The position numbers were made by a program, and so were the translations under genes. From Spizellomyces punctatus DAOM BR117 (Eukaryota), in assembly GCA_000182565.2 (NCBI GenBank), contig KQ257459.1: DNA of 44,364 nucleotides. The stretch is one strand, 5' to 3'. Below the pieces are notes generated by a model. That model was not told where the DNA came from and ran no database searches. It saw only the letters and a program-made list of their open reading frames with translations. Shown piece by piece: positions 711 through 44,364 of this stretch. Position 1 is the first letter of the stretch. Each line of letters opens with the position of its first letter.

Positions 711-2030
711 ATGTCGTCCCAAACCCAACAAGCGATCAACTATCGCTCTCCTCGCATTTTGACCCAAATTGGATGGACAACTACGAAAGCCCTCAGATTG
801 GCTTGTATCAATGCATATGGGGACGAAGGTGATGTCGTTGCTTCCATTGCCCATGTCGCTTGGAAGATCTTCGTTGGCAAAATCCCAAAGGTTAGATTCG
901 ATTTTGTCTCGCTGCAGGAGAAGATCATTGAGAGATGTCATCATTTTCATACTTACAATGTCCAGACTGCTGCATATCGGCACCTAATAGCCAATGCACA
1001 ACAAGAACTGGAGAACAATGCTCAAGGAGAGTGCACTGCGTATGGCGAATGTGCAGCAGATGCAAATGGACGTCCGCTGCAAGCCGCTTTTCGTGTCCTT
1101 CAACAGAATAGTACGGATGAGCCCATACCTAATGTACAGGTTAGAGCGACATGCCAAAAACAAACTTTGAGCACCATACGACCCACCTGCACTCCCCTAA
1201 CGTGTCATTAACATACCGTCTTTCTAGACTCATATCGTGCTCGAAATGCTCCTCAACGAAGACACATTTGAGTTCCGCGCCATCCTCCACTCGGAGGAGA
1301 TTTCCGACGAGGCTGGAATAACAGTCCTGCGCGAATTAACAAACATAATGCGTGAGATCATCGACATACCCGAAGCAGCAGTAAGATTGCCTGCTAACAG
1401 TACCGATAGTGACCTTACCGCGAGCCTGTTTCCAAACCTCACCGGGAAGATCCATCACCGTGGACATACCGTCAGCCTTGACGCAGTTTCGCACACTTCA
1501 TTCATCATTAAGGACTTGGACGGCCACCTCCGAGCCCTCGAAACCACGCCTGAAACGCTCGGTAAAGCCGCTTGGGCAAAGCTTCTTACTCACTACACTG
1601 GGGAAAACGAGGCTGAATTCGGGTTACTTCGGGGTGACAACGACTGTATTGTCCCAGTCCAGCTTTCTCTAGATGAGATAGACAACAATGTGGCCCTACT
1701 GCAAAAGCTGATGGAACAGGAGCAGGTGGCCAGGATAGACTTAATAGATCGTAGATGTGAGACCCTGCTGCAGTATGGAAGGACGCCCACAGCTATCAAG
1801 TCTCACGGGGTGAGTTTTGACCTTTCAGCTCCCAGCATTCGTATCATGCCATCGCTGTGCTAAAGAAATCTTTTAGACTATCCTCCACTTGATCATGCAC
1901 CCAACAGATGAAATCGATCAGTTCAAGCTCACCGTTCATTATAATGAGAAGCTGTTGCCCCGACGACAAGCCATGTTGCTGCTTCAACAATTTGAGCACG
2001 TCTACCGCGGAATACTAGAAAATCCCTCCG
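711..2030 (+). other. N-terminal NRPS region: two tandem degenerate C-domain C-terminal halves
   Basis: HVAWKIFVG..VRFDF and LFPNLTG..KAAWAKLLTHYTGENEAEFG resemble the FP.LSG..QAAWAKLLSYYVGEPDVTFG segments of the intact C domains. Each is followed by a C-domain terminal helix (VLRELTNIMREIIDIP; LLQQFEHVYRGILENP). No HHxxxDG motif. Confidence 0.65.
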
Positions 2031-5000
2031 CCCCACCACTAGAGCTTGCTGACACATTTACAGAGGACCTCCTGTCCATCACTATCGCAACAAATCCAAA
2101 CGTCAATACAGAATCGGCACCATTCCTTCACTCATTCTTTGCAGCTACCGCGTTACGCTGCCCGTCAAATGTAGCGCTAGAGTTTATCACGTCCATGTCA
2201 CCATTCTCCATACAGTCATGGACGTACGCATCCCTCGAGAAGGAATCAAACAAACTCGCCAACCTTCTCATTACGGCTTACAATGTCCAACCTGACGACA
2301 TTATTCCCATCTGCATGGAGAAATCAGCATTCATGTACATATCGATTCTCGGTGTGTTGAAGGCAGGGTGCGCATATTGCCCGATCGACTGGCAAACTCC
2401 AGTTGAACGAGCCCAATATATCCTCGAAGAAACCAAGGCACATGTCATTCTCATCTCCGGCGACGGACGCAAGCTTGCCTCACACCCACAGTTTCCCTCT
2501 GACGTGGTCGTGCTGCAGCTGGATGACTCTGCGTCGCCATTCCACACGTCGCCGGAAACCACACCACCGGTTCCGGCACTTTTGACACACCACCTTGCAT
2601 ATGTCCTTTACACCTCAGGTACAACTGGACGCCCGAAAGGCGTAATGATCTCTCACGACTCGGCCACTCGATCAATCCAATCGCATTGCGCAATGGTTCC
2701 TTGCAGGAAAACAAGTAAATTTCTCCAGTTTGCAGCAACTACGTTTGATGTGTCAATATTCGATATGTTCTTCACTTGGAGGAATGGCATCACACTAGTA
2801 GCGGCAAAAACGGAACTGATGCACAGGGACCTAAGTGGGGTTGTCAGAAGTGGTGGCATTACACACTTGGACTTGACCCCAACCGTAGCCGGAACTCTCC
2901 GAAAGCAGGACGTTCCTGGCCTGGAAGTATTATTCTGCATCGGCGAGGCGTTAACTCAAAAGGTTGTTGACGAGTTTGGGTCTGCAAATGGAACCGACTG
3001 CACGCTTCTGAATGCCTACGGGCCAACAGAAGCAGCAATCTCATGTACGATCGCGAACGTCAAGAAAGATGCTGGTACTTTGCCCGCAAATATCGGTACA
3101 CCGTTTCCGACTTGTTCCATCTACGTCATTGCCCGAGGGAGCTTATATCCGGTCCCCATCGGTTGTATTGGTGAACTTTGTCTCGCCGGCACACAGCTGG
3201 CGAGGGGATACTTGGCCCGTCCCGACTTGACAACTGACAAATTCCTCACCTTTCCGTACAATGGTGAGCGGATATACCGCACGGGGGACCTGGTACGACA
3301 ACTATCGGACGGAACAATCGAATATCTTGGCCGAATTGACGATCAGGTGAAATTAAACGGATACAGGATAGAGCTGGCGGAAGTCAATTCTGCTCTGATG
3401 CAGGCAAACAACGGCGTTCAACAAGCGGTAACGATGGTGCTGAGGCATCCTAGTTGGATCCGTGATCAAATGGTCGTGTTCCTTTCTCTCATTGGTGAAA
3501 AGCGGCCTGGAGAGGCTTGCGAGTTCTTGAAAACTTTTGGAAGAGAATCCACTCTGTCGAATGCTGTGTCGTTGGCAAAAAACTTGCTAGCACCATATAT
3601 GGTCCCGAATATTTTTCTGCTTGTCAGCAAAATTCCCTTGGGGACGGCGGGGAAGGTCGACCGTAAGTGCTTGAAGCAAATGTTCTTATCCTTGTCCGCG
3701 GAAGCTCTCCAAGATATGCTTGGAGGACACACGTCAGAGGTAGGTGTGAATGAAAAATGGACCGCCGAACAACATTTTCTTCGACAGATAATTGCAGAGA
3801 CAGCTGCAGTCCCACTGCACACTGTTGAAAAGGACACGACGATATTTCACGTTGGCATCGATTCAATCGGGGCAATGCGTTTCGTTGCACGGCTGCGAGA
3901 AGAACGCGGCATTGAGATGTCCATAATCGATGTCATGCAGAATCCGACCGTCGCCCTCATGACCCAATTCATCGATAATCGGGAATTGTCATGCGCAAAA
4001 GTTCAACCACCAGCGGCGAACGAATCGCATGTTCTGGAAGCGTTTGCGAGTCGTGTGCAAGAAATCGTGTTCTCCCAATTGAAGGGTGTAGTGCCGGATG
4101 CTGTGAAAGGGATATATCCCTGTACACCTCTCCAAGATGGTCTTCTGTACGGAACGCAAAAGACGCCTGGTGCCTATTTCACGCACGAGACGTTCACACT
4201 TCACCCCAGCGTAGACCTCGAGACGCTCCAAAGAGCCTGGATGGCTGTCATTGACAATAACGATATCCTACGCACTAGTTTTTGTCATGTTGGCGATTCC
4301 ACAGCCACCTTTGCCCAGATTGTTCACCACAGTGTCAAAATGCGGTGGACCTCCCGTATCGTACAGTCAAAGGAGCTGATAGCTAAAGTGCAGAAAGATC
4401 ACATATCCACCTTTGGAAGCTCCGTATTCACCGCTCAAGACGTTCCAATGTCTTTCGTGTTGTTCGAGTGTGGGGACATCAGGTCTCTTGTCTTGTCCAT
4501 TCATCACGCTCTATTCGATGGATGGTCCTTGCCACTTATTTTGCAAGATGTGCAAACGGCTTACAGCTCGTGCGGCAGCGATCTACCAAAGCGACCTCCA
4601 TTTTCAAGGATGATTCCGCATCTGTTAGGGGACAAGCAGCCCGCAAACAGCAGAAATTTTTGGACCGACGCGCTCAGCAATGTCCGGCCAGTTGCATTTC
4701 CTGGCCTCTCGCAGACGACTGTCTTTACACCCGGCAGCCATACAGTCACCCGCAAAGTCTCGACATCTCTGACTGAAGTAGAGCGCCTATGCCGCCAAGC
4801 AGGCACATCCATTCGGGCGGTGGGACAAGCAACTTGGTCCATCCTCCTCTCTGCCTATCTGGACACACCGGATGTCACATTTGGCCATGTTGTATCAGGC
4901 CGGACCCTCGATGTTCCCGGAGTCGCTCAAGTTATTGGGCCATGTCTGAATACTGTTCCATGTCGCCTGCGTATCGACCAATACAATAGCATTCATGAGC

Positions 5001-8000
5001 TGCTACAGGATATCCAAAGGCAATATGTGAATATGCTTCCATACCAGCATACGCCATTAAGATCTATACAGAAATGGTCTGGTATGGCTAATGGGCTATT
5101 TGACACCATATTTGTGCTTCAAAAGACCGATAATGGTGGACACGGTTACGAGGACGAAATATGGAACTGGGTTGACACAGTTGATGAGGACGAGGTAAAT
5201 ATTCGACATTGTTACATTCATTCAACTTGCTTATGGATTATGTGCTTCTAGTATGCCATATCGATAGAGGTCGAACCCATTGCCACCAATGATACTGTTG
5301 TATTAAAAGCCATTTGCAAGAATGCCCTTTGTTCTCAAAGTCAATCCGAACTTTTAGTCGCCGAGTTCGAAGCCATCATGCTCGGAATTCTTCAACACCC
5401 TTCCAGCAATCCAAATCTACTGCACCAGTTGAACCTGCCGGGATCCGTACTATCTATCAGCCCAATGGCGCATTTACCAGAAACATCTCGGACTGGTGCC
5501 CTCTTCATGCATAGCTTCGTGGAGAATCAGGCGAACACCAATCCCACTGCTGTGGCTGTGAACTTTGTTTCGGAGATCACGAAATCTGGGGAAGCTCTCG
5601 GAGAGGAATATACTTATCAGGCATTGGACCGTGAAGCAAACCGTTTTGCCAATCTGCTACTCGCGAAGGGTCTTACATTGGGTGCCGAGGTGTCGCTCTG
5701 CGCGCCAAAGTCTCTGTCATGGTTTGCTGCATTGCTCGGAATATCCAAAGCCGGAGGCGTTTACGTTCCTATCGACCATGAGGCACCTGTGGATCGGAAG
5801 CGATACATCCTCAACGACGTGGGAAGTAAATATGTTGTCACAATTTCGTCTTTGGAGGTTGAATTGAAAAAGGTGGTACCTCTTGATACGGAATTCATTA
5901 TTCTCAACGACGATCAAACGAGAGCCCATCTTTTTGCCCAGTCAGATCTTTCGCCTTCAGTAGAACTCACGCCTTCGGATCTCGCATATATTCTTTATAC
6001 ATCTGGGACGACCGGCAGACCAAAAGGCGTACTAGTAGAGCATGCTAACGTAACGCACAGCATCGAAGCCCACCGTCACCTTATCAAATGGCATCCAGCA
6101 GCTCGGTTTCTGCAGTTCGCGTCATGCTCTTTCGATGTATCCATTTACGAGATGCTCTTTCCCTGGAGCGCGGGCATGTGCGTGTGCGCTGCAGATAAAG
6201 ATCTTCTTCTCAAGGACCTGGAATTGGCGTTCCGTGCCATGCATATCACACACGCAGAGTTAACCCCGAGCGTCGCTTCAATGGTTAAACGACAAAACGT
6301 GCCGCAACTGGAAGTGCTGCTTACAGGGGGCGAAGCTTTGACTCAGAATGTTTTGGAAGAGTGGGCAGATGGCGAAATGTTGTATAATGCGTATGGTCCT
6401 ACCGAAGCAACAATTGGGTGTACAATGTTGTGCGGAGTTCAGAAGTCCGCAAAAGTTTCGAACATCGGTCGTCCTTTTCCGAATGTTTTTGCCTGCGTAT
6501 TACCGGTTCATGGCGAGCGCCATCCGGTCTTGAAGGGTGCTACCGGCGAACTTTGTGTGGGGGGTCCGTTGGTGACCCGCGGATACCTTGGCCAACCGGA
6601 GTTGACGGCGGCGAAATTCATCAATTGGTCGCCAGTATCATCACCGACCTCTATCGAACGCCTTTACAGGACGGGGGACCATGTCCGTTTGATGGCAGAT
6701 GGCACATTGGAGTTTTTGGGTCGTGTGGACGATCAGGTCAAGATCAACGGCATCCGGATCGAGCTGGGCGAAATCAACAGCAGATTGCGGGCTGCGTCCA
6801 AAAATGTCATCAATTCCGTCACAACGCTAATAGGACGTTCTGGTGCTTTTAAGAGTGAATTGGTCGCTTTCCTCGTGATGGATACAGCTTTCTCAAAGGA
6901 GTGCGAGATTATCCTGTCGAATGAGAAGTTCAGAGAAATTCGTGAAAACATTGTCCCGGTGTTGAAGCGAGAGCTTCCTTTGTACATGGTTCCAAGCTTC
7001 ATTCTTCCTATTACCGCTCTTCCTCTAGGAACGACGGGCAAAGTGGACATAAACCGGCTGAGTGCGCTGTTCCAGAATCTTTCGCCAGAAGCTTTGCACA
7101 GTTGCCAAGCGCCGGACGACATATCTGCAAATGAGAGCTGGACGGACTTGGAGAAGGTTATACGTGACGCGATTGTCAACCAGCGAGAAATCACAGTCCA
7201 CCTCGTTAGTAGAACCAGCACGATTTTTGAGCTCGGCCTGGACTCTTTGAGCGCAATATCGTTGTCGGCCAGTTTGCGGAAAAAGGGCCTCGAGTTATCC
7301 GTGTCTGATATCATGCAGCATCCGACAATTTTGGAGATGGCAAAGTATTTGGAAGCGAGGGTAGACACCGGAGGACGCGAATCCATCGAATTATCAAGCT
7401 CATTGGATGTATTCGCCACATATGAGGAGCAGAGTAGGAAGCTGGCGGCAGAGAATCCTTCCTTGGCCGGAAATATCGAATGTGCCTATCCATGCCTTCC
7501 ACTACAGGAAGGAATGGTGGCGGAATGCATGAAGTCTGGCGGTGCATTGAACATCAACGAAATCACGTTGGACCTAGAACCATGGGTTGAGTTTGAGACG
7601 CTGAGGCACGCTTGGTTACAGTTGCAGGAGCAAACTGATATTTTGAGAACTGCTTTTTTTGCCATGAGCGATGGCAGCTACGGTCAGGCCGTGCTTGGCA
7701 GCAATAGTGGTTTCATAGCTTCTTTTGAGACGAAATCTTACGCGAGTCAGCCTAGTCTTTCGATACTCCTAGAACAACAGCGAAATCAAGTGGTCCAAGA
7801 CATGTACAACATGAAGCCACCAGTCAGCGCATGGGTGCTTCAAAACGAGAACTCAACGAATACGAGATTGTCTATTATAATTCACCACGCGTTGTACGAT
7901 GGTTGGAGTTTACCATTGCTCCTGAACGATTTCAAACGACTGTATCATGGTCAATGCGCTCCTCGGCGCCCGCTGTTTCGTGAGTTTGTTCGTTACGTGG

Positions 8001-11000
8001 AAAATATCGGGCACACCCAGGAGGAAGTGTACTGGAGACGAATATTACATGGCGCAACGAGCTGTCAATTCCCCGACCTTAGTGGGCGGCGCAAAGATAC
8101 GGATGGTAGTCCCCATTCATGCGAAGCTTCCAGACATCTGAGCGCTACCCGCTCAGAACTTGAAACCGCGGCTCGAGCTATCGGCGTTACTGTGCAGGTG
8201 TTGGTTCAAGCTGCGTGGGCCAAATTACTGTCGTACTACGTAGGCGAACCAGATGTGACCTTTGGACATGTTATTTCCGGCAGAACGGCTCCTGTGAGCG
8301 GAGTGGAGCAGATTGCTGGACCATGTTTCAACACCATTCCATGCCGTGTGAATCTCAGTGACAGAAAATTGACGAACAGGCAATTGCTGCAATCAATTCA
8401 AACCCATAATTCCACGGCCATATCGCACCAGCATGCATCTTTGAGGTTGATCAATAGATGGATCGGGGCGTCCACCGAGCAGCCACTGTTCAACACAATT
8501 CTTATATATCAGAAGACAGAGGGATGTTCCGCCGAAGATAATTTATCTCAATTGTGGAAAGAGGAGAAAGATGGTCAAGTTGAAATCGACGTAAGTTCCA
8601 TCCTGACACGCTGACTGGGTCCTCGTACAAAAGCACTCATTAGTCCCGAATTTAGTATCCTGTCTCGGTAGAAGTAGAGCCTCTTGCAAATAACAGGCTT
8701 GCTCTTCGCATATTGTGCCGTAGCGATGTAGTTCCAGAAGAACACGCGAACTTACTGGCACGACAGCTGGAATCCGTTTTGCTAGATTTGACACTCCGAC
8801 CAGACGGAGTTGCCGCGGATATCCCATTTGATGAGCAGGAGGTCGTTTCTATCTCTAACCCTACTCCAACCGTTGTGTCTGGCCTCCTTCACGGAGCCGT
8901 TGAAAAATATGCAGAAGAAAGCCCGAAAAAAATTGCCCTCGAATGGGCGATGTCGATATCCGACACCACCATCGATATGGAAACGTGGACATATGCAACC
9001 TTGAACGAGCAAGCAAATAAGATTGCGCATCTTTTGCTGTCGAAAGTTCAAAGCTGTGCAGTTGTGCCCATCTGCTTAGACAAATCCCCCCTCTCCTACA
9101 TGGCAATTTTGGGAGTGCTCAAAGCTGGATGCGCGTACGTTCCTCTCGACCCAGCACTCCCGCTTGACCGACGGCTGTTCATTGTGAAAGACACGAAGGC
9201 ACCCGCAGTACTTACCACTAGTCAATATGCTGCAGCGCTTCAAGGAGGGAAAGCGATGGATTCGTCCTTCGATATCATATCCCTGGATTCGGTAGATCTT
9301 CAAGGTCAATCCGCAAGAAACCCCCGAGTTGCGACAAATCCTTCGGATCTCGCCTACATACTATACACTTCAGGAACAACCGGTCTACCCAAAGGCGTCA
9401 TGGTCGAACATGGCAGCGCAACAGCGTGTTTGCACTCATTCCAGAGCATGTTACCGTGGCGTCCTGTATCACGTTTTCTTCAATTTTCATCGTTCTCCTT
9501 TGATGTTTCTATTTCAGAAACATTCATGCCGTGGCTCGGGGGCCACACGGTGTGCACTGCAAGTAAAGATACCCTGCTGATAGACCTAGAGCAAGCCATC
9601 CGCATGCTGAAGATTACTCATGCTGATCTGACCCCAACGCTGATTACCCTTCTTCATCGTGACCGCGTACCAGATCTGAGAGTTCTCATTACTGGGGGCG
9701 AGATGATACCGCAAAAGATATTGGATGAGTGGGCCGGATTGAACGATATATCTCTGTACAACGCGTACGGCCCAACGGAAACGACGATCAATTGTGCAGT
9801 CAACCGACAAGTGAAGCGATCCGCCAAACCTGCAAACATCGGACAGCCACAGTCGAGTTGCTCCATTTACATCTTGTCGCAAAGCCTACAGTGCATTCCA
9901 ATCGGTGGAATTGGGGAATTGTGCGTCGGCGGGATTCAAGTCGCTAGAGGATACCTAAATTTGCCTAAATTGACACAAGACAAGTTTTGCACATTCCTGA
10001 ATCCTCTTTCTGGAAAAGAGGAACGTGTGTACCGAACGGGAGATTTGGCGCGAATGCTACACGATGGAAGCATCGAGTTCATTGGCAGACTTGACGACCA
10101 GGTCAAGCTCAACGGTCTCCGAATCGAACTGGAGGAAGTGAATGCAGTACTCTCAGGCTCTGATCCTAACATTTCTAACGTTGCTACGCTGGTTTTGAGG
10201 AGACGCGAACAGCAAAACCATCAACTCGTTTCTTTCATTGCACTCGGAAATGAAAGTGGCGATTGCAAGATAATTAAGGGCGACTTGCATGCGAAGGTAT
10301 TAGAGAATGCGACGGATGCCGCCGCACGAAAGCTGCCGGCATACATGGTCCCGACACACATTCTGTTGATCAATACGCTACCTTTGGGCAAGACTGATAA
10401 GGTGGACCGCAAAGTCCTCGCTACCCTTTACACGGACATCCCCTCGGAAGTCCTGGATTCATGGGGAAGCCAGAATGGAGCCGATGGAATCTGGTCCGAC
10501 GAGGAGAGTCACATCAGGGACGCTTTGGGAGAGATAGCAAATGTGCCTTCAGATACGATCAGTCGTCATTCCTCCGTTTTCCAGTTGGGACTTGATTCAA
10601 TCAGCGTAATTCGCTTGGCATCGTTGTTACGAAAGCACGACATTACATTGACAGTGTCTGAAATCATGGGGAACCCGTCTATAGCACGTATGTCTCACCA
10701 TTTAAAGCATCGTCAGAACGGGATGGAATCAAGACGGCACAATATTGCTCAAGCGAGGAACATGATCGCAAACTTTGAGAAGCAAATCAAGCCTGCGTTA
10801 TTGGCGCGCTCGACGCAGGAGCAGAGCGATGCGATCATCTCTGTTTACCCATGTACCCCGCTTCAGGAAGGAATGTTGGCCGGTACATCGAAATCGGATG
10901 GCTTGTATATCAACCACTTTGTGTTTGAGCTGGAAGAGCACACCGACTCAGAACGCTTATTAGAAGCCTGGCGAAAAGTCATCGAGCAAAACGACATTTT

Positions 11001-14000
11001 TCGCACCAGCTTTCATCTCACCAATGATGAAACCTTTGTCTATGCCCAGGTGGTTAATGAAAAGGTTTGGATGCCCGTGAAGAACATTCAAATCCAGCAC
11101 GGCGGAGATTTCCCCGCCGCGTTCGATGAACATACGAAATGCAGCACAGCGACAATAGGAGATTTTCGCCGACCTCCACTTGGATTTGCCCTCGTACGAA
11201 GTCCATCTCAAGCCTGGCTCATCGTTTCTATACATCATGCTCTCTTCGATGGTTGGAGCTTTTCTCTTACCCTCACGGATGTCCAGGCGCATTATCGCGG
11301 AGTACCCCCACCTTTGCGACCTCAATTTCGATCATTCGTGGAGTCCACTGTGGGACAAGTTGAGGACAAATCTAAGTTGTTCTGGCAGGAAAGGCTAGCC
11401 CGGGCAAATATATCTGAATTTCCAGATAACCTTCATGGGAAGACGTTCAAAACCCACGAAGCCAGTGCACCTCAATTGGTGGAAATCTTTTCAGAAATTT
11501 CGTATGGCGAAGTTGCAACACGTTGTCGCGAGATGGAAGTCAGTGTTCAATCAGTAGGACAAGCGGCCTGGGCTCTCCTTCTGGCTGCGTATCTTGGCCA
11601 GAAGGATGTTATATTTGGCCACATTGTCTCCGGCAGATCAATTCCTGGCTCTGCAGCTGTCATTGGCCCAACATTGAACACCATCCCATGTCGCGTGCAA
11701 GTGGATAAGCATGCATCGAATCTGGATCTTGTTCGCCATGTACATCAATTCAACATTGAAGCCATCCCTTATTACCACACAAGCCTGCGGGCAATCATGA
11801 ACGCATTGGGAAGAAACAAAGATGCTAAACCATTGTTCGATACTATCTTCCTGTTCCAGCAATCGCACCAAGAAGTGCATACGGACGAAACTACGTTATG
11901 GAAAGAAATAGCCGGTCAGGCAGACGTTGATGTAAGTAGCTTTTGTCTGGTATTTAAGCGCATGAGTGACTGCTAATCAAAGGCCATAGTATGCAGTTAG
12001 CATCGAGTTGGAACCTAACGATGACGTCTTAGTGCTCCGCGCGGCATGCAGGCCGAGCCTGATGCCCGAGGATCAGCTGAATCTTCTCTTACGCCAACTG
12101 GATATGATTCTCAGGCATATCATCCAGGAGCCGCACGGAAAGATTGGCGATTTTAAAACACCGGCGCTCGATCTCATGTCTATTCAGCCGCGAAAGATCC
12201 CCGACTCACTGGTCCAGAAAAAGAGACGATCCTGGTTCTGTCCGCGGAACTTCAAAACAAATCACACCATCGATACGATGCATCAATTCATCGAGAAGCA
12301 CGCAGCCGCTTCACCGCACCGGATATGCTTGGAATTCGCTTCGTCGATCTCGAAATCTGAAATCCATAGTTGGACCTACCGTGAATTCAATTCCAAAGCG
12401 AACAAACTCGCACGTTTTCTGCGCAATTGTGGCGTTACCCGCAATATGTTGGTGCCGATTTGCCTCAAGCAATCTCCTTGGATGTATCTGGCTATCATAG
12501 CTGTTTTGAAGGCTGGTGCTGGGTATGTGCCCGTCGACCCGCAAGCACCGGCAAAACGGAAGACATATATCTTCTCGGATGTAGACGCGAGTTTCGTTCT
12601 TACTTCCCCAGACATTGCAGATATTATGGAGGAGCTTGAAGACGGGACACCGAGGCAATATATCTGCGTTGATGATTCTATCGAGGGTAGACTCAAGACG
12701 CTATCAAGTTCGAACCTGCCCAATAAGGTTACCCGAAATGACCTCGCGTACGTCATCTACACCTCGGGGACAACAGGGTTGCCCAAGGGCGTCATGATCG
12801 AGCACGGCAGCGCTGTAGTTGCAATCGAATCTTTCCAACGGCTAATTCCAGCTGACCAGCACGCGCGATTCCTTCAGTTTGCCTCATTTACATTTGACGT
12901 ATCGATTTTCGAGATGTTCTTCGCATGGAGTATGGGACTTACTCTGGTAACAGCGCCGCGGGATGTGCTGTTGGCTGACTTAGAGTTGGCAATGCGTGTG
13001 CTCAACGTCACACACGCAGATCTAACTCCAACGGTGGCCACATTAATTCGACGTAGTGCTGTACCATCAATTGAGCTTCTGGTGACAGGAGGAGAAGCCT
13101 TGAGCCAGCAAGTCCTAGATGACTGGGCTGGTACTTTGTATAATGCATATGGCCCTACTGAAGCCACAATCGGGTGCGTGCTGAGGCCAAGCGTATCAGC
13201 CGAGATCCGCCCAACCAACATTGGGCATGTATTCGACTCGTGCTCCGCTTTCGTCTTATCAGAGGATCTGAATGTTATACCACGCGGTGGTGTTGGTGAG
13301 CTATGTATCGGGGGACCGCAGGTTGCTCGAGGTTACTTGAAGCGACCGGATCTGACAGCGGAACGGTTCGTTTACTTGCCCTTGGCAAAAGAGAGGATTT
13401 ACAAAACCGGGGATTTCGTTAGAATGTTAGCCGATGGCTCCATTGAGTTTTTAGGACGACAGGACGATCAAGTGAAGCTCAATGGATTGCGTATAGAATT
13501 AGGCGAGATCAACTCTGTCATGTGCAAAGCACATCCCGACATCAAAGACGTGGTCACACTTGTGCTCAAGCACCCGCAACTGCAAAGAGAGCAGTTAGTC
13601 GCCTTTGTCGTCTTGAAGAGTGACTATAGGACGGCGGTGGAGCCTAAGATTATTGGTTCCCTTGCGACATCTACAATTTTGAAGGAAGCACTCAAAGCTG
13701 CTAGGCGAGCACTACCGCTTTACATGGTGCCGGCTCATGTCTTTTTGACAAGCCTGATTCCGCTCGGAAACACAGGTACTGGAATCTTCCTGAAATCGAT
13801 GAAAGTGTTGACGCTAATATCCGCCCCCTTCCCCCTTTTTCTTTTTTTCTCACTACAGGAAAAGCGGATCGTAAAGCTCTCTCGTATCTGTTCTATGACT
13901 TGGACGCGAATTCACTCCAAGCGATGCAGGTGCCGGACATCGATCGTCCTTGGAGCGAACTTGCAAGAGAGATCCGTCGCTGTCTTGCACAGGTCGCACG

Positions 14001-17000
14001 CGTACCAGTGGAAATGATTGGACAAGACTCATCCGTTTTCCAGCTCGGCCTAGACTCGATTAGCGCTATTCGTCTCTCATCGGAGCTGAAAAAAAGCGGG
14101 CTGAACATTGGCGTATCTGAAATCATGCGATGCTCAACAATTGCTTTAATGGAGTCGCATGTGCAAGATAGCCGTGACAAACACCACGAGGACGTCCAAC
14201 TGAAGAGGGATCGCGAAGCATTTTTGAACAAGTTTGTCGAGCGCCACCAACGCGGACTCGATGTTGATCTCAATGATGTTGTCGCAATCTATCCCTGTAC
14301 GCCGTTACAAGAAGCCATGCTAGTTGAAACCCTAAAGTCCACCAAACGCCCTTATATCAATCATATTCCGTTTGATCTGCATCCAAGTGTGGACGTGAAA
14401 CAGCTTGTTGATGCATGGCAGGCAGTCGTTGCTGCGAATGATATTCTCCGTACAAGCTTTCACCCTGTCGAAGATGATAGGTACGGTTATGCCCAAGTTG
14501 TTCAACGGGGAAGCACGGTTCATTTCATGGAGCGGCACCTGGAGCACGACGAAGATCTTCAAACCGTTATTAAGGAGCAGACTGACGTGATATTTAAAAA
14601 TGTGCGAGATCTACGACGACCACCTTTGGGCTTTGCCTTATTGCAGGGACCGATTGGTACCTGTTTGTTGCTTTCGATTCACCACGCTCTATACGATGGC
14701 TGGAGCTTGCCGCTGATCTTACAAGACGTGAGGCGCAAGTACAAAGGAGAACCCCTTTCAGACCGACCCCAATTTGTCACTCTTGTGAAGAGTATTCTGA
14801 CGGAGTCTGAAGAAGACTCCAAACGGCATTGGCTAGCACTGTTGGATGATTGCCATCCGTCTATTTTTCCCACAACCCTTTACGGGACCCATGCACCCTC
14901 TGAGTCTGATGTATCATTTTTTGCGTCGAGAGTGTGTGGCGTGGACGCTACCGACATATCAAAAATCTGCCAGAGTTTGGGTGTTAGCATGCAAGCTGTT
15001 GGACAGGCTGCATGGGGACTTCTCCTTGCTGCCTATCTAGGCGAAGACGATGTGGTTTTCGGTCATGTTGTATCTGGACGATCCGTACAAGTGGACGATG
15101 TTGGCGATGTCATTGGCCCTGCGTTCAACACGATACCAACACGAGTAAAGCTTGCGCAGTGTCGGACGTACGCAGATCTCCTGCGTGCGATTCACGCTGC
15201 AAATGTTTCGGGAGTGCCTTTCCAACACACCCCGTTGAGATCCATTGCCAGGTGGACAAGCCAGTCAGCATATGGTTGGTCCTTATTTGACACCATCTTT
15301 TTGTTTCAAAAAACCGAAGATAGTTCGGAAAGTGGTGAACCGTTGTGGGACATTGCCGAAGGCCATGCGGAAGTGAATGTAGGTAGTCTTTGTGCTGTTC
15401 AGTTGGACATGTGCTAAACTAAGGATTTTTCTACAGCATGCGGTCAGCATTGAGATGGAGCCCACCGGCAAGATTCTCCATCTTCGCGCATCCTGCCAGG
15501 CTAAAGTCATGCCGCATGCCCATTTGACGATGCTCTTAGAGCAGCTTGAGCGGATTATTAAGCGAATAATATCGTGTCCGGAAGAAAGTGTTAGAAGCTA
15601 CGGTATGAAAAGCACCTCACATCTGGCATCAGTACATGAACAAAAGCGCAAAGTGAAAACCTCAAGCATAACTACCCTGCACGGTTTCCTTGAGCACAAT
15701 GCATCTCGTCTCCCCACCCATCCCGCTCTCGAGTTTAGCGCTCCTGTTTTAGCCGACAACTGTGATACTACCATTTTCACCTATGCTGAATTAAATCGCA
15801 AGAGCAATCAACTTGCTCACTACTTTATAAGTAGAGGAGTAACGGCCAACACCTTTCTACCCATCTGCCTTGAGAAAGGAATATGGATGTATTTGTCGCT
15901 GCTTGCTGTCTTGAAAACGGGTGCGGCATACGTCCCCACGGCCCCGGAGATTCCTCCTGAGAGGAAGGAGTACATTTTCAAGGACGTAAATGCTCAATTC
16001 GTGGTCGCCACTGAGCCAGTGTCGACAGAGATTACGTGCGGCAATCCAGACGCGACAGTACTTGTCGTTGATGATCGGATGACAGAGATTCTTCGAGAGT
16101 TTCCTGACACGAATCCTGCTGTTCCCGTTTCGATATCCGACCCTGCGTATGTCATCTACACATCTGGAACCACTGGTGTTCCTAAAGGAGTGGCTATTCA
16201 GCACGACAGCGCAGTTGAGGCATTTACTTCATTCCAAGAACTCATTCCTTGGAATGCTACCTCACGGTTCCTTCAGTTTGCGTCTTTCACATTTGATGTA
16301 TCAATTTTTGAAATGTTCTTTGCTTGGAGTACCGGCATCACTTTGGTTTCAGCACCAAAAGACTATTTGCTGGCTGACTTAGAGCAAGCGATGAAGAAAT
16401 TGAGAGTGACGCATGCAGACTTAACGCCAACGGTCGCTACGATGATCAGACCTGACAACGTTGCTCTTGATATACTCGTAACTGGTGGCGAAGCGTTGAC
16501 GCAGCAGGTCTTGGATGATTGGGCTGGGAAGGGCGTCTTATACAATGCTTACGGACCAACGGAAGCAACCATTGGATGCACCATGCGAAAAGTCGATTCT
16601 AATACGAGTCCATTGAATATTGGCATGCCATTTAATTCCTGCTCAGCTTACGTGTTGAACGGCCCCGAAATCCTTCCCCGTGGGGCCATTGGAGAACTCT
16701 GCATAGGCGGCCCTCAAGTAGCTATGGAGTACATCAATAATCCAAGTCTCACCTCTGAAAAGTTTGCCATCTTGCCGGCAACCAACGAACGCATATACCG
16801 GACTGGGGACTATGTTCGTATGCTCGCAGAAGGATCCATCCAATTCTTGGGGCGGCAGGATGAACAGGTCAAAATGAACGGTCTTAGGATTGAATTAGCA
16901 GAGATCAGTTCTGTCTTAGCAAAAGCCGACGCCGCATCAATTTGCGACGTTGTTACGATGGTTTTAAAACATCCGGCTCAGGAAAGGGATCAGCTTGTTG

Positions 17001-20000
17001 CTTTTGTGAGCTTACTTCCGGGAAGGGATGAGACGGAGAGTTTGCTCGCTGAAGAATGTAAAATTATCGGTTCGGCGTTCGAGTCTCCAGTGTTGAAAAC
17101 AGCGATGGAGATAGCCGCTCGAAAGCTTCCCATTTATATGGTTCCGGGGCTAATTTTCTTGGTGAACAAAATTCCCCTTGGAAATACCGGTAAGAGCAAT
17201 CACACGAACCGCTTAGGTCTGGCAGACAACTAAACTCATCAATACAGGCAAGGCGGATCGGAAAAAGTTGGCACAAATATATCAAGGATTAGACATCACC
17301 TACCTGCGGTCTGCCGGCGCCAACGAAGAATCAGATGATAATTGGACGCAGACGGAAAAGGTGATTCGGCAATGTCTCTCGGAGGTATCAGGGGCTCCTT
17401 TGCAATCTATCACCCGACACAATACGTCCATTTTCCAACTTGGACTTGACTCCATCAGCTCGGTTAAGTTATCTTCAAAGCTCAAGAGCCATGGCATTGT
17501 TCTACCTGTACCCGACATTATGAAATTCCCCACCGTAGCTCGACTATCGAGTCGGCTGTCGGAATTTAATGCTGATTTGGAAAAGGAGAAAGTGGAAATG
17601 GCCCAAGCTGCAAAGCGTGAGAAGATTCTTGTGGACTTCGACGCAAAGTTCACGCCTGTTGTTCTGGAAGAGTCTGGCTTGGAGGATGGCGCTGTGGCTG
17701 CTGTCTATCCTTGCAGCCCGTTACAGGAAGGAATGATTGTCGAGACCTTGAAATCCGAAGGGAGGCATTATTTGAACCACGCCATTTTTGAGCTCAAATC
17801 AGCGGTGGATGTGCAGAGGCTGTTGAATGCATGGGAGTCGGTCATTCGAGCCAACGACATCCTCAGAACAGGTTTCTATTCCGTTGACAGTCCTTTATGC
17901 GGCTATGCGCAAGTTGTTCTCTTGAAGTCCAAGATGCAGCTTACCGTTGAGTATCTCTCCAGGAATGACCAGTTGCGGCCTGCGTGCGAAAGGCACATCC
18001 AAAATGTAACTCGTTCGATGCTCGATTTACGCCAGCCACCAATTGCTTGTGCAGTGCTTCATGCTCCCCAGCAGAAGTGGCTGGTCGTGACGCTTCACCA
18101 TGCGTTGTACGATGGTTGGAGCTTGCCTTTGATATTAGACGATGTTCGAAAAGCGTACATGGATCTGGAGCTGACAAGGGTGCGACCACAATTCAAAGAA
18201 CTTCTGAAGTATATCTTGATGGATTCTCGAGTGGATGCCCAAGAACACTGGAGCAATGTCCTCACGGGTTTTACACCAACGGTGTTTCCAGATACCCTGC
18301 TCGGTACCGCATATATATCCGGAACATCCAAGACCTCCACCCATTTCGAATCGAGGATAACTGAATTGAAGGTTGAAGAAGTGGCGGCCGCGTGTCAGAC
18401 ACTAAATGTCAGCATGCAATCATTTGGGCAAGCGGCCTGGGGTCTGCTCCTGGCTGCCTACACCGGCGAAGCCGATGTCATATTCGGGCGAGTGATATCT
18501 GGTCGCTCCATCCCCCTTGACGGAGCTAATGATGTTATTGGGCCATCCTTTAATACGATCCCCTGTCGCGTCCAAACGGAAAATGTCTCCAATGCACAGT
18601 TGGTCACCGCTGTCCACAAGGCAAATATTGATGCCATTCCCTATCAACACACTCCCTTGTCGTGGATTCTAAAATCGACAGAGAAGAATCGCGATGGCCT
18701 GCCGCTGTTTGGAACACTATTTTTGTTCCAAGTCGGATCTGGTGAAAATGAAGATGACGATCACCCACTCTGGACAACGATTGGAGGAGAGGCAGAAGTG
18801 AATGTGAGTTAATGAAAGTTACTTCAGTCAAATGCAACCCCCCTTAACTGAGTCATGCGCATCTGTTACCAGTATGATGTTACCTTGGAAATTGAGCCGA
18901 CAGGCCCCAATTTTGCGGTCAGAGCTACATGCAAAACCTCCATCATGCCGACATCCCATCTCTCTACTCTTCTGCTGCAGTTCGAACACATCCTCACAAA
19001 CCTTATCCGAAATCCAGATCGCCGCCTTTTGCCGTTGGATGATCCGTTGCCTGACAGAATGATGTCCATCATACCGCGGACTCGCGACGCCAACGTTGGT
19101 GGCATGCTCACCGATCAACCACTCTATCTGCATACATGGGTGGAACATAACGCCCAATCGCAGCCCGATGCGATGGCGTTACAATTTGCGAGAAGCACGT
19201 CGCTAACGCAATATCCAGAAATTGAGACAATTACATACGATATGCTCAATCGGAAGTCCAATCGTATAGCGCACTTCTTGATTTCTCGCGGAATTCGTCC
19301 CGAGACCTTTGTCCCGCTTAGTATGGACCGGTCTCCTTGGTATGTGTTATCGTGAGTTTCGCATTCGATGTAAGAAGTCTTACATTTTCTTTCCTTATAG
19401 GATGTACATATGCATTCTTGGGGTACTCAAAGCTGGAGCAGCGTACGTTCCCATGGATCCTGATGCCCCACCCGAGAGGAAACGGTTCATGCTCTCTGAC
19501 GTTGGAGCAAAAATTGTCCTCACAACTGCAAGTGATGCAATGAACCTCAGGACTTGCTGTCCGGATGAGATAGAAGTCATCTGTGTTGATGAGTTGGACG
19601 ATCTCATCTCAACATACCCACAGACAAACCCACATGTTGAAGAGTTCCCTCAGTCAACGCTCGCATACCTGATTTACACTTCAGGCACCACCGGGACGCC
19701 AAAGGGCGTAATGATCGAACACCACTCTGTGGTCGAAGCCATTCTCTCTTTCCAAGAACTTATACCGATAAGTGGAACTGCCCAGGCACGATTCCTCCAA
19801 TTCGCTTCATACACTTTTGACGTGTCGGTTTTCGAAATGTTTTATACATGGAGCATGGGAATGGTAGTTGTGAGCGCGCCAAAGGACGTGCTGCTTACCG
19901 ATTTAGAGAATGCTATCCAAATCCTCGGTGCCACCCATGCAGATTTGACCCCAACCGTAGCTGCCATGGTGAGGCCGGAAAATGTACCAAGCTTGAAGGT

Positions 20001-22659
20001 GCTGGTGACGGGAGGCGAGTCTCTGACCCAGCATGTAGTTGATGCGTGGACTGGAGATGGAGTCACACTTATCAATGCTTACGGACCGACCGAAGCCACG
20101 ATTGGCTGTACCATGTTTGTCGGAGTCGAGTCTACCACCCAACGAAATAATATTGGACAAGTGTGGCCGTCTTGCTCGGCCTATGTTGTCTCCACATCAC
20201 ACGATCTGCTTCCGCGCGGTGCAGTTGGAGAATTATGTGTCGGCGGTCCACAGGTTGCCCGAGGATACCTCAACCGCCCCGATCTCACTTCTTCAAAATT
20301 TATCCAGCTACCTGCTGGCGGGGAGAGAGTATACTGCACTGGCGATATTGTGCGCTTACTTCCAGACGGATGCGTACAGTTTCTGGGACGGCGGGATGAT
20401 CAAGTTAAACTAAATGGATTGCGCATTGAACTGGGCGAAATCAATGCGGTAATTACAAAATCGGATCCTTCTATAACGGACACGGTTACAATGGTAGTTA
20501 AACATCCGAAGCAAGTTCGAGATCAGATCGTTTCCTTTATCGGATGCGACAGGGATGTTAGGCAAATCCAGATAGACAAGTTCGAGAACATGCTGCTGAA
20601 AGATGACGATGGAACTTCTACCAAACTTATTTCAGCTGCGTTGCATGCGGCGCGACGTCACCTGCCGGCGTACATGGTTCCCTCGCTCATCGTTCCACTG
20701 ACTGGTCTGCCGCGAGGGGCAACTAATAAAGTAAACTCGTCTGCCCTTGCCCGAATGTTCAAGAATTTGGATTTCAAGCTGGTTGCCAGTCTTACGAAGC
20801 AGATGGAAGACAGCGACGGCGGCATTTCGGGCGATCTTGCCGAAACAACTTGGACAGACCTGGAGAGCGCCATCCGGAATGTTTTGGCCGAAGTCTCTTC
20901 ACTCTCTCTGGACGAAATTACGCTGCGAGCCTCAATTTATCATCTTGGATTGGACTCCATCAGTGCGATTCGCGTATCGTCCAAGCTTCGTGGATTGGGT
21001 ATTCACATCAGCGTTGGAGAAATACTTCGGCAAAAGACCATCAAGAACATTGCCGACTTTTTAACTGAAAGAGACAGACTTCCAGAATACAAACATCAAC
21101 CTGGTGCTACCCGGTTGATGGCGCGTGAACTCGTCAAAAACTGGATTGGAGAAGATTTCCTCAGTATTGACCTTCCCAACCGGTTATCGACATCAATGCC
21201 TGCCGTTGCAGGCGTATATCCAGCGACGGCGGGTCAAATCTTCACCCTTTCCTCCTGGCATATGTCCCAAGGCAGATACTTTATGCCATCCTTCATCTTC
21301 ACATCGCGCGATGCTATTGATGTACGCCAGCTCGAAGAAGCGTGGATTGCACTCTTGAAGCGTCATGAGATCCTGCGCACCGGTTTCCTTTCCACATCCT
21401 CACAAACGGCACCCTTTGTGCAAATTGTGTTTGCTGATCCAGTCGTAAACTGGTCGTGCGAAGCTTTTGACATACCATTGGAGGAGAATATCGTTAAAGA
21501 GCGTGTCGAGTACGAAAAAATGCAACCTGCGGTGGTTTCTTCACCTCCTGTACGCCTTCATTGCATGGCATTCCAGGATCGCGCAGCTTTGGTGCTTACC
21601 ATTCACCACGCATTGTATGATGGATGGAGCATTCCGCTTCTTCTTTCAGATCTTTCGACCCTTTACCGCAAGCAGCCATTGGCGGAACATAGTGTACGCT
21701 GGTCCGACTACCTTGAGTACGCTTTCGAGACACGTCAATCAATGGATAATAGCCCTCAGCAAGAATATTGGCGTAAAATGCTGGATGAGACAGGGACAGC
21801 CTTCTTCCCACATTTGAACGCCTCGTCCCCAAATTCGACAGACACTGCTCTTTATGTGCCCGTTGCAATCCCTAATGCTGCAAAATATACGTCAGCGTGC
21901 CAGCGGAAAGGAATCACCCTTCATTCCCTATTCCTTGCCGCCTGGGGACAACTTCAAGCCAAATACACCAATGCCAACCATGCATTATTCGGACTTTACC
22001 ATTCCGGACGATCCATTGGTATCAGCGACGTTGATACCCTGCGTGGTCCGTGCGTGAACGTCCTTCCCTTCCAGGTCCGGAATGCAAGAACATTGAGTGT
22101 GTTGGATTGCGCCAAAAATGCGCAGGACGAGTTGGCAATGCAGAATGAAGCAGTGCCTTGCGTGTCGATGCATGATGTTCAAGTGTGGAGCGGTTATCCA
22201 GGCCAGCCAATCGTTAATGTATTTGTTAACTTTTTGATGTTTCCAAATGGTGGAAATGATGGAGATGATGCGAAAGTGGAACTTTTTAAGGCATGCCGGG
22301 TAAGGCGCTGTTGTGATATAGGATCTCTCTATCGATGGCACTGTGTATTTACATCTATTTCACTCTACCAGATGCGAGACTGGGAGACACAAAATGCCCC
22401 AATACCAGCCTCTCACAAAACCGGACTCGACGGATGCCTTGCAGCTCCTCTTCAGGTTAGTTTTTCCATCTGCTCAATCTTTCCGTGCGATAACCGCTAA
22501 ACATTTACTTCACCATAGAATGATATTGATTTGGAAGTCGCTGTTCACAATGATGTCATCAGTTTAGGTCTTTACTGTCCCTCGCATGTTATGTCTATGG
22601 ATCAGGCGGGAAGCGTTGTAAAACAATTATGCGATAGTGTTATAAATGCATTAGATTAG
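711..22659 (+). CDS. Hexamodular non-ribosomal peptide synthetase, ferrichrome-type siderophore synthetase family (SidC/Nps2/Sib1-like), ~7,049 aa; architecture relicC-relicC-(A-T-C)x6
   Basis: Exons 711-1139, 1228-1809, 1877-5194, 5252-8590, 8656-11931, 11990-13775, 13859-15378, 15437-17189, 17248-18803, 18873-19339, 19401-22299, 22372-22455, 22519-22659 join in frame through GT-AG introns (21,150 nt). Six copies each of A3 YTSGTTGxPKG, A5 NAYGPTE, A7 Y(R/K/C)TGD, T-domain G(L/I)DS and C-domain HHAL(F/Y)DGWS. No TE or R domain. The first two exons and the 22300-22371 intron are less certain. Confidence 0.93.
2120..5400 (+). other. NRPS module 1 (A-T-C), approximate bounds
   Basis: YTSGTTGRPKG; T-domain Ser in GIDS at 3863-3865; HHALFDGWS; pocket residues read by eye as DVFDFIAISK. 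Confidence 0.9.
5500..8790 (+). other. NRPS module 2 (A-T-C), approximate bounds
   Basis: YTSGTTGRPKG; GLDS Ser at 7244-7246; HHALYDGWS; pocket DVYELGAIGK. Confidence 0.9.
8880..12130 (+). other. NRPS module 3 (A-T-C), approximate bounds
   Basis: YTSGTTGLPKG; GLDS Ser at 10597-10599; HHALFDGWS; pocket DVSDIGAINK. Confidence 0.9.
12275..15580 (+). other. NRPS module 4 (A-T-C), approximate bounds
   Basis: YTSGTTGLPKG; GLDS Ser at 14056-14058; HHALYDGWS; pocket DVFDVGAIGK. Confidence 0.9.
15675..19015 (+). other. NRPS module 5 (A-T-C), approximate bounds
   Basis: YTSGTTGVPKG; GLDS Ser at 17451-17453; HHALYDGWS; pocket DVFDVGAIGK. Confidence 0.9.
19125..22659 (+). other. NRPS module 6 (A-T-terminal C), approximate bounds
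   Basis: YTSGTTGTPKG; GLDS Ser at 20956-20958; divergent C1 motif YPATAGQ; HHALYDGWS; pocket DVFDVGAIGK; protein ends after this C domain. Confidence 0.9.
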
Positions 22660-30224: not shown

Positions 30225-31095
30225 TTTGTCGTAACGTATGCCGTGGTGAGAAGAAAATGGTACGATTCGTGTCTGCTAAAACTTGGTCAACACGACCCCC
30301 CGAAGGGCAACCAAAATGGTGGCCCTTGGTCGAAGTCTAAAATTGATGACTGACTGTATTTGCACCTATTTCCGTTATTTTCTAGGCTCGAAAGTATAGC
30401 TGACAATCGTACCAATTCCCCGGTCTCCATAAGCTTGAATCCGTACTCTGAGGGTCACCCTGGTGCGAACCTATTGAAATTTAGGGGCGTTCAGCGTAAC
30501 GGTCAACATCTTGCTAATATGGGGGGGTAGCGTGGCTGATAATGTTCATAATCCCAGTGTAAGCGATTATGAATCCTAGCATAAATATTCCTGGATAACT
30601 CTATGAATAGAAGACCCGTGTTTAAGTGAAGTACCTGTCCTACTTTTCTGGGGTATCGGCTTTGACTATTTTACGCTCGGTACATTTCACACTCAATTAG
30701 TGATTGCATCAAAGGTTTGGATGCGCTTTACTTAAGTACGATTTCTTTATTAACTACATCCTACATGCCATCCGCTGAACTTATTTAGATATTTCCTGCA
30801 AACTTAAATGATATGCCTAACTCGTACGTTCGGCGTAAGTTTAAAATGTCCAATGTCAATGCTCTCCAGTCCGTGGCTTAGATGCTTATGTCACTCAACC
30901 TCAACCAATGATCAAATTGCTGTGCCACCCAGTCAAGCCCATCAATTCCGTAGCTTGCAACGTCGTTGAACCTCCTCTTTCATCAAAGCAAGACTCACGG
31001 CGCATGTATGTATCCTGGGAGGATGAAAAAGGAGATGGATGATATTGATGTAGTGGTGTGCCCCTGAATGATGGATGACTGGGGTTCGATACATG

Positions 31096-44289: not shown

Positions 44290-44364
44290 TTTAGAGTTGT
44301 AGCCCAGTTTACACGTCAGGTTGGGTGTATATAGTCCACAAAAGATGTGCATTTGTAGTTAAAC

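Follow-up and report, generated by a model that had tools for sequence, protein, structure and literature searches.

Introduction

The closest described relatives of the gene considered here are the ferrichrome synthetases of Dikarya, non-ribosomal peptide synthetases (NRPSs) whose modules are made of adenylation (A), thiolation (T) and condensation (C) domains. In SidC, according to PMC10192304, the single domain A3 loads N5-acyl-N5-hydroxyornithine (AHO) on T3, T4 and T5, including downstream T domains that have no A domain of their own. An ancestor with six modules was inferred from the Dikarya enzymes, every one of which has lost A domains, by Schwecke (2006) and by Bushley et al (2008), as related in PMC2644324, which reports no such gene in a chytrid (Batrachochytrium being the only one sampled) or in zygomycetes. 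The same paper describes Ustilago maydis Sid2, for which two complete modules are predicted to serve AHO and which Bushley et al regard as a transitional form linking a hexamodular ancestor to a system that is iterative throughout. An NRPS with six A domains, that for ASP2397/AS2488059 in Acremonium persicinum, is described by Asai et al (2022), as summarized in PMC10192304.

Here, we examine a 44,364-nucleotide (nt) stretch of contig KQ257459.1 of the chytrid Spizellomyces punctatus DAOM BR117 (the window, meaning the whole stretch of DNA that was analysed), in which an NRPS gene occupies positions 711..22659 of the plus strand. The original prediction for this gene was of a ferrichrome-type synthetase with six complete A-T-C modules in a flagellated fungus, working co-linearly and either retaining the ancestral state or re-expanded by tandem duplication. 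The evidence below is best explained by a single intact, six-module NRPS of the ferrichrome clade that would work co-linearly and would be of partly duplicated origin, a reading to which we assign a probability of roughly 0.55.

A single intact gene encodes six complete modules

Stop-free frames on the plus strand, when chained, cover 684-22500 of the window, and 11 GT-AG introns of 57-88 nt join them, by frame logic and splice consensus, into a single open reading frame (ORF). This begins with the ATG at 711, ends with the TAG at 22657-22659 and encodes a product of 7,073 amino acids (aa) in the model of this analysis. The NCBI protein P0125 from S. punctatus DAOM BR117 (7,024 aa, 'amino acid adenylation domain-containing protein') is 99.3% identical to the model over its full length; the sole differences are that P0125 also splices 891-965 and 22300-22371, both in frame. 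Because the NCBI annotation carries the same splices elsewhere, it reproduces the model's other eleven introns. The gene is therefore a single intact NRPS gene of ~7,050 aa and 11-13 introns, encoding (A-T-C)x6 preceded by a relic half C domain; it is already public under a generic name and uncharacterised.

711..22659, + strand: whole NRPS gene (ORF chain, introns, 99.3% identity to P0125)
711-1139, 1228-1809, 1877-5194, 5252-8590, 8656-11931, 11990-13775, + strand: NRPS exons 1-6 (this model)
13859-15378, 15437-17189, 17248-18803, 18873-19339, 19401-22455, 22519-22659, + strand: NRPS exons 7-12 (this model)
1140-1227, 1810-1876, 5195-5251, 8591-8655, 11932-11989, 13776-13858, + strand: NRPS introns 1-6 (GT-AG)
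15379-15436, 17190-17247, 18804-18872, 19340-19400, 22456-22518, + strand: NRPS introns 7-11 (GT-AG)
1131..2074, + strand: N-terminal relic C pieces (hmmsearch with our own C profile, independent E-values 1.9e-5, 1.2e-12 and 7.6e-7)
2090..5464, + strand: module 1 (A1 2090-3640, T1 3761-3985, C1 4085-5464, intron 5195-5251 within C1)
5471..8859, + strand: module 2 (A2 5471-7027, T2 7142-7363, C2 7460-8859, intron 8591-8655)
8851..12193, + strand: module 3 (A3 8851-10386, T3 10495-10716, C3 10816-12193, intron 11932-11989)
12239..15640, + strand: module 4 (A4 12239-13765, T4 13954-14175, C4 14260-15640, intron 15379-15436)
13776-13858, + strand: intron in motif A10 of module 4, phase 1
15638..19073, + strand: module 5 (A5 15638-17179, T5 17346-17570, C5 17676-19073, intron 18804-18872)
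17190-17247, + strand: intron in motif A10 of module 5, site and phase as in module 4
19092..22569, + strand: module 6 (A6 19092-20718, T6 20854-21075, terminal C6 21187-22569)
19340-19400 and 22456-22518, + strand: module 6 introns, the first near motif A2, the second at the conserved C site
22300-22371, + strand: possible further in-frame intron of module 6 (NCBI model)

Pfam matched AMP-binding six times (E 9.4e-62 to 1.5e-75, the sixth match being split by an intron), PP-binding six times (E 1.7e-10 to 1.2e-14) and Condensation six times (E 3.2e-40 to 3.7e-50), with the domain order strictly A-T-C throughout. A motif count on the NRPS model found TSGTTGxPK (motif A3), NAYGPTE (A5), YxTGD (A7), the T-domain motif GxDS[IL] and HHALxDG in 6/6 modules each. 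Motif A8, as GRxD[DE]QVK, was likewise found in 6/6; it reads GRQDEQVK in module 5, and a stricter pattern gave 5/6. The A10 lysine is present in 6/6 modules in one common alignment column. No A-less T-C unit occurs in the window enzyme, each of its six T-C units having its own A domain. Six complete modules in one gene had thus been correctly foreseen, and the gene boundaries proposed with them, 711 and 22,659, proved exact at both the ATG and the TAG.

Decay into a pseudogene, division into several genes and a recent transfer from bacteria all appear highly improbable as readings of the locus, together the least credible of the alternatives considered. Bacterial NRPSs are the top-scoring matches in PDB, which would suit such a transfer; however, removal of the GT-AG introns leaves no frame breaks, the catalytic motifs are intact in 6/6 modules, no intergenic gaps separate the modules and the orthologue from Spizellomyces 'palustris' is ~90% identical over its full length. 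A bacterial origin was rejected, as in the trees the fungal clade excludes the NRPS domains of bacteria, and the gene is interrupted by 11-13 spliceosomal introns.

The first ~400 aa hold pieces of a C domain that the original prediction did not mention. Residues 141-195 correspond to a C tail, and residues 205-277 and 344-403 to the C-terminal half of a C domain; the lobe bearing HHxxxDG is missing from these pieces. BLASTP of residues 196-405 matched C domains of the ferrichrome-synthetase family at E 2e-13. The best BLASTP and phmmer matches of the relic were spread across several C clades, so its clade affinity, and in particular descent from a C2 domain, was not demonstrable by these searches.

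The introns carry a record of how the modules arose. A phase-0 intron lies at one common site in C1-C6 and in both relic tails (1140-1227 and 1810-1876 in the latter), just before a tail resembling '[YH]xVxxExEP', and each large exon consists of a C tail, an A domain, a T domain and most of the following C domain. Because this intron is present in every C domain, relic tails included, it predates the module duplications. A second, phase-1 intron inside motif A10 (GNTG|K) is found in modules 4 and 5 only, the other four modules being without it, which agrees with modules 4 and 5 being the closest duplicates. The six modules are old copies, module-to-module identity ranging from 41.5 to 58.4% for A domains and from 27.7 to 46.3% for C domains.

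The enzyme falls within the ferrichrome-synthetase clade

A word-indexed protein search with module 3 as query, covering proteins of 1,912-5,000 aa, scored 2,803 candidates. Among the best 120 of these, chytrids lead (Spizellomyces, Powellomyces, Thoreauomyces, Fimicolochytrium) and ascomycetes come next, some of the listed ascomycete proteins being named hydroxamate-type ferrichrome synthetase, SidC or SidN. The best match then served as query in another search, which reached proteins of up to 8,600 aa. Profiles of the A, T and C domains built from the window's six modules were then used to annotate 229 fetched proteins. A metagenome scan with module 1 as query returned no relative.

Exactly (A-T-C)x6 was found in four of the 229 proteins: P0125 itself, its Spizellomyces 'palustris' orthologue P0124 (90.4% identity, full length), P0126 from Rhizophlyctis rosea (40.9% identity to the window protein) and P0122 from Basidiobolus. 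Three have (A-T-C)x5, namely P0121 (S. 'palustris', 5,707 aa), P0123 (Gaertneriomyces) and P0128 (Phlyctochytrium arcticum). Another S. punctatus gene, P0001, is also of this kind and is 89% identical to P0121; its NCBI model (4,914 aa) stops inside the fifth A domain and appears truncated relative to P0121. The named Dikarya homologs read A-T-C-A-T-C-T-C-A-T-C-T-C-T-C or (A-T-C)x4-T-C-T-C, and P0116, a homolog from Ustilaginomycotina in the set, reads A-T-C-A-T-C-A-T-C-T-C. An A-less T-C unit is also present in Powellomyces hirtus P0127 (A-T-C-T-C-A-T-C-A-T-C-A-T-C), and such units recur in Dinochytrium kinnereticum P0129; A-domain loss has therefore occurred outside Dikarya too, and these two proteins display the loss typical of the family. 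At least six A domains were counted in a few further fetched proteins (e.g. P0149, P0156 and P0215), of which P0149 and P0156, the two placed in trees, lie in the outgroup.

Domain trees were built at two levels. FastTree was run on 33 proteins, including bacterial NRPSs, Linnemannia (Mortierellomycota) and four other fungal NRPSs, and comprised 175 C domains (6/181 under 330 aa were removed) and 140 A domains (2/142 under 380 aa were removed). In both trees, the ferrichrome domains of chytrids, Basidiobolus and Dikarya came together in a single clade (SH-like support 95 for C, 98 for A), with the other fungal NRPSs next to it and the bacteria outside; the terminal-C clade had support of 99. 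IQ-TREE was run under LG+C20+F+G4 with posterior mean site frequencies (PMSF) on 73 C rows from 12 proteins and 63 A rows from 13 proteins, each including 5 additional outgroup domains; this set leaves out Zcel, Pchl, Jros, Prot, Lhor, Lwil, Tver, both Powellomyces, unnamed proteins and bacteria. Support from IQ-TREE is given below as ultrafast bootstrap (UFBoot)/approximate likelihood ratio test (SH-aLRT). The family was separated from other fungal NRPSs at 100/100 for A and for C, and the window's C6 lay within the terminal-C clade together with Dikarya C6 (100/99). By the phylogeny of its domains, the window NRPS belongs to the ferrichrome-synthetase clade, as had been anticipated.

The modules are not positional counterparts of the Dikarya modules

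In the trees, domains are labelled WIN for the window gene, Bmer6 for Basidiobolus P0122, Rros6 for Rhizophlyctis P0126, Parc5 for Phlyctochytrium P0128, Spal5 for S. 'palustris' P0121, Gaer5 for Gaertneriomyces P0123 and Dkin for Dinochytrium P0129. The clades that define the first two positions of the Dikarya enzymes contain no WIN domain. The A1 clade (90/90) unites Dikarya A1 with Bmer6_A1, Dkin_A1, Spal5_A1 and Gaer5_A1; the A2 clade (98/90) unites Dikarya A2 with Bmer6_A2, Spal5_A2 and Gaer5_A2; the C1 clade (100/98) unites Dikarya C1 with Bmer6_C1, Dkin_C1, Spal5_C1 and Gaer5_C1; and the C2 clade (98/98) consists of Dikarya C2 and Bmer6_C2, with no pentamodular chytrid paralog in it either.

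The first three A domains of the window gene instead correspond to later positions. WIN_A1 groups with Rros6_A1, Parc5_A1, Bmer6_A3 and the A3 of the NPS2 lineage (100/97), WIN_A2 lies in clade i with Bmer6_A4, Spal5_A3 and Gaer5_A3 (100/99), and WIN_A3 lies in clade ii with Bmer6_A5, Spal5_A4 and Gaer5_A4 (99/97). WIN_A4 and A5 (98/88) and the WIN_A6 group (97/93) make up a chytrid-only clade (94/89) that adjoins Spal5_A5 and Gaer5_A5 (87/86). The C domains repeat this pattern: WIN_C3, C4 and C5 form a chytrid-only clade with Rros6_C3-5 and Parc5_C3-4 (98/90), inside a 'delta' clade (94/98) to which Basidiobolus (C5), Dinochytrium (C5) and the pentamodular chytrid genes (C4) contribute one C domain each. 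The WIN copies pair with specific copies of Rhizophlyctis (Rhizophlyctidales) and Phlyctochytrium (Chytridiales); the duplications therefore predate the split of Spizellomycetales, Rhizophlyctidales and Chytridiales and are not recent.

Topologies were compared by approximately unbiased (AU) tests under LG+F+G4. With full searches, constraining WIN_C3, C4 and C5 to group with Dikarya C3, C4 and C5 cost 205 log-likelihood units (lnL) and gave an AU p of 1.5e-25; our conclusions rest on this comparison and on the clade supports. Constrained fast searches were noisy by ~30-80 lnL: the unconstrained fast tree lay 28 lnL below that of the full search, and H11 received a poorer score than H8, a constraint nested inside it. 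Within that noise, constraining all six C positions to Dikarya orthology cost 400 lnL, uniting the chytrid beta, gamma and delta C clades with Dikarya C3, C4 and C5 gave AU p = 0.07-0.2, and strict positional orthology of the six C domains of P0122 gave an AU p of 0.002 that is unreliable.

These results bear directly on whether the gene is a retained ancestral hexamodule whose modules 1-6 are positional orthologues of Dikarya modules 1-6. Such retention would explain why an early-diverging lineage has six complete modules and why WIN_C6 is orthologous to the Dikarya terminal C, and AU tests from the noisy fast searches did not reject the C1-type domain of WIN with the C1 clade (p = 0.078) or its C2-type domain with C2 (p = 0.158). 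Against this stand the grouping of WIN_A1, A2 and A3 with positions 3, 4 and 5, the chytrid-only clade of C3-C5 and the cost of both constraints, and we consider direct retention very unlikely. On the trees, strict ancestral retention by the window gene is rejected and the gene appears to be a rearranged derivative. Of the two origins proposed at the outset, re-expansion by tandem duplication is favoured over retention because the duplicates C3-C5 and A4-A6 are confined to chytrids and the AU test excludes positional orthology for C3-C5. We infer that a unit C(delta)-A(iii)-T was duplicated twice and that two N-terminal modules are missing, what remains in their place being the half C domain and the further C tail. 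In Basidiobolus numbering, the window gene would read [relic]-M3-M4-M5-M6'-M6''-M6 and the pentamodular paralog M1-M2-M4-M5-M6. The broader expectation, that complete hexamodular members of the family exist in early-diverging fungi, is supported by the sequences compared here.

Pocket codes suggest three identical AHO-like modules

Nine pocket positions (235, 236, 239, 278, 299, 301, 322, 330 and 331) were read from an alignment anchored on FD, TP[ST], GE and NxYGPTE, with a mapping of positions to motifs that we take to follow GrsA numbering. The Dikarya AHO-type code DVLDIG[G/A]IG was present in 12/12 ascomycete domains of the SidC-A3, SidN-A3 and NPS2-A4 types in the set. In the window enzyme, the codes of A1, A2 and A3 are DVFDFIAIS, DVYELGAIG and DVSDIGAIN, respectively, and A4, A5 and A6 all share DVFDVGAIG, which matches the Dikarya AHO code at 7/9 positions. 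The latter code recurs in Rros6 A4 (with one gap) and A5, Parc5 A4, Spal5 A3 and A5, Gaer5 A3, Powellomyces A2-A4 and Bmer6 A4. The positions from which A2 and A3 derive have AHO-like codes in the paralog, so the specificity of both has apparently changed. Ranking PDB matches was discarded as a test of AHO specificity; it was uninformative, SidN A3 (3ITE) being the top A-domain match of neither A1 nor A4.

Three differing codes followed by three identical AHO-like codes fit what a co-linear X-Y-Z-AHO-AHO-AHO enzyme would need. According to this model, A1, A2 and A3 would each load a different residue, and A4, A5 and A6, given their identical AHO-like codes, would each load the same ornithine-derived residue on their own carrier. 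C1-C5 would form the five peptide bonds, and the terminal C6, the orthologue of the ferrichrome-synthetase terminal C, would release the hexapeptide, probably by cyclization. Loading between modules would not be needed, in contrast to SidC. The co-linear, non-iterative working that was first proposed is in this respect plausible, as A4-A6 share a single AHO-like pocket code.

Several observations weigh against one part or another of this co-linear, duplicated ferrichrome-type enzyme. Contigs from four sequencing runs were 100% identical to the gene, unspliced over 8 predicted introns and without joints; they look like DNA and are silent on expression and splicing. Support is weak (92/59) for the backbone that links clades i, ii and iii of chytrid A domains with the AHO clade of Dikarya, and ancient gene conversion among C3-C5 could imitate duplication, although it would leave the A-domain orthologies unexplained. 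In phmmer, A1 and A4 scored 228 and 241 bits against SidN A3 (3ITE) vs 247 and 265 bits against bacterial PheA (1AMU). An acidic residue at 278 with glycines at 301 and 331 would equally suit plain ornithine or lysine. No gene for an ornithine N5-monooxygenase (SidA/Sib2), an N5-transacylase (SidL/SidF/Sib3) or a siderophore transporter was found in the window's 21.7 kb downstream or 710 bp upstream of the NRPS. The 10-residue code is reported to fail as a predictor of substrates in the ferrichrome-synthetase family (Bushley et al, 2008; PMC2644324), and a 2024 preprint reports that blastp found no SidF or SidL homologs in Chytridiomycota.

The last of these points also speak for a different product of the same co-linear enzyme. 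Here, A4-A6 would load a non-hydroxylated residue, for example ornithine or lysine, and the resulting cyclic hexapeptide would contain three identical and possibly basic residues and serve another function. Absence from the window of a sidA, transacylase or siderophore iron transporter (SIT)-type gene would follow naturally, as would the result for SidF and SidL that the preprint reports, and 2/9 positions of the shared code depart from the Dikarya AHO code, in a family where codes predict poorly. ATCWGATAA, which we take to be the extended GATA motif of SreA/Fep1 type, was not found upstream of the gene; its one match in the window, at 38612, lies inside the CEP104 gene, against a chance expectation of 0.61. 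However, siderophore biosynthesis genes need not cluster. The placement in the ferrichrome-synthetase clade, with a terminal C common to both, also argues against a non-hydroxamate product, as do the three consecutive identical AHO-like codes, which mirror the tri-AHO block of ferrichromes. Basidiobolus, which has close relatives of the gene, is CAS (chrome azurol S)-positive (Tabima et al, 2020), an activity that is not assigned to this gene family; that study describes, for Basidiobolus, both CAS activity and an expansion of A domains of the siderophore clade, with chytrid NRPSs outside its analysis. On balance, a non-hydroxamate hexapeptide strikes us as somewhat unlikely, though a serious competitor, and for the co-linear enzyme that we prefer, the odds that its predicted product is a hydroxamate appear about even.

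Other genes of the window

The remainder of the window holds the following features, from Pfam searches on ORFs.

25095-27536, + strand: squalene/phytoene synthase gene, multi-exon (PF00494, E 2.2e-25 and 4.8e-09 on two ORF pieces)
28912-30275, - strand: seven-transmembrane receptor fragment, rhodopsin family (PF00001, E 1e-11 on one ORF piece)
33285-35879, + strand: Zn2Cys6 fungal-specific transcription factor, 864-aa uninterrupted ORF (PF04082, E 1.8e-32; PF00172, E 3.3e-06)
37182-40943, + strand: CEP104 centrosomal/ciliary gene (TOG and ZnF domains over several exons)
43005-44358, both strands: long overlapping open frames of up to 327 aa, no Pfam match

The Zn2Cys6 factor gene lies ~10.6 kb downstream of the NRPS. 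CEP104 agrees with a flagellated organism; the attribution of the DNA to a flagellated fungus was borne out by this gene and by the near-identity of the NRPS to the protein of S. punctatus, a chytrid. The upstream minus-strand ORFs 1-405 and 320-640 and the other unassigned ORFs of the window gave no Pfam match.

Comparison with known systems

The full-text literature searched held no paper on these chytrid genes or on any chytrid ferrichrome-type NRPS. As far as that literature goes, three things are apparently new: the presence of ferrichrome-clade NRPSs in chytrids at all, their possession of an A domain per module with three consecutive AHO-like modules, and the interpretation of the window gene as a rearranged derivative and not the ancestor. 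This is tempered by the facts that the protein is already annotated, that the gene is derived and that a co-linear six-A ferrichrome-type NRPS is known in Acremonium. The ancestor hypothesis becomes directly testable, by trees and by enzymology, because outside Dikarya there are members whose modules all have an A domain (the window gene and those of Rhizophlyctis, Phlyctochytrium, Gaertneriomyces and Basidiobolus). The window enzyme, as a naturally occurring, non-iterative equivalent of SidC, lends itself to work on the evolution of loading between modules, and it poses the question of chytrid hydroxamate siderophores, which the current literature denies.

A more ambitious reading would derive the fully A-equipped early-diverging relatives from a real M1-M6 ancestor, kept by Basidiobolus and split by Spizellomyces into two paralogs, the window gene making co-linearly a new hydroxamate hexapeptide whose three non-hydroxamate positions come from former AHO modules. 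We hold this only tentatively; if it were true, chytrids would be siderophore producers, contrary to current reviews.

Against the described enzymes, the window synthetase shows the following likenesses and differences. The Dikarya ferrichrome synthetases of NPS2 and SidC/SidN types share its A and C clade and its terminal C, at ~33% identity over ~4,400 aa, but have 3-4 A domains, whereas the window enzyme has one in every module and lacks orthologues of modules 1 and 2. The original statement that characterised Dikarya enzymes have only 3-4 A domains calls for some qualification in view of the six-A NRPS for the ferrichrome-type ASP2397/AS2488059 described in PMC10192304. That NRPS, compared here by description only, resembles our reading in its dedicated A domains, three for AHO and three for backbone residues, in a co-linear ferrichrome-type line; unlike the window gene, it is reported in the same source to have an evolutionary origin separate from the ferrichrome family. 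Sid2 of U. maydis differs from the window enzyme in having three A domains only and one terminal T-C.

The pentamodular Spizellomyces paralog (P0001/P0121) resides in the same genome and clade and likewise carries three consecutive DVFDVGAIG-type A domains towards its C-terminus. It differs in having Dikarya-like A1 and A2 domains (codes DVFELIAIH vs Dikarya DVFELIMIH, and DVFDITANV vs Dikarya DVFSVAGNI) and a C1 orthologue, and in being without the position-3 module and the extra duplicates. This paralog, too, looks nearer to the proposed ancestor than the window gene does. P0122 of Basidiobolus meristosporus CBS 931.73 (6,834 aa) is in the same clade, has six complete modules and is 39.8% identical to the window protein over 6,868 aligned positions; the two share the terminal C, and WIN modules 1-3 match P0122 modules 3-5 in both A and C trees. 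Unlike the window gene, P0122 keeps orthologues of Dikarya A1/C1 and A2/C2, followed by an NPS2-type A3 and three AHO-like A domains. Thus, judged by module orthology, the Basidiobolus enzyme appears to come closer to the proposed ancestor than the window gene does, and closer than any other living form compared here.

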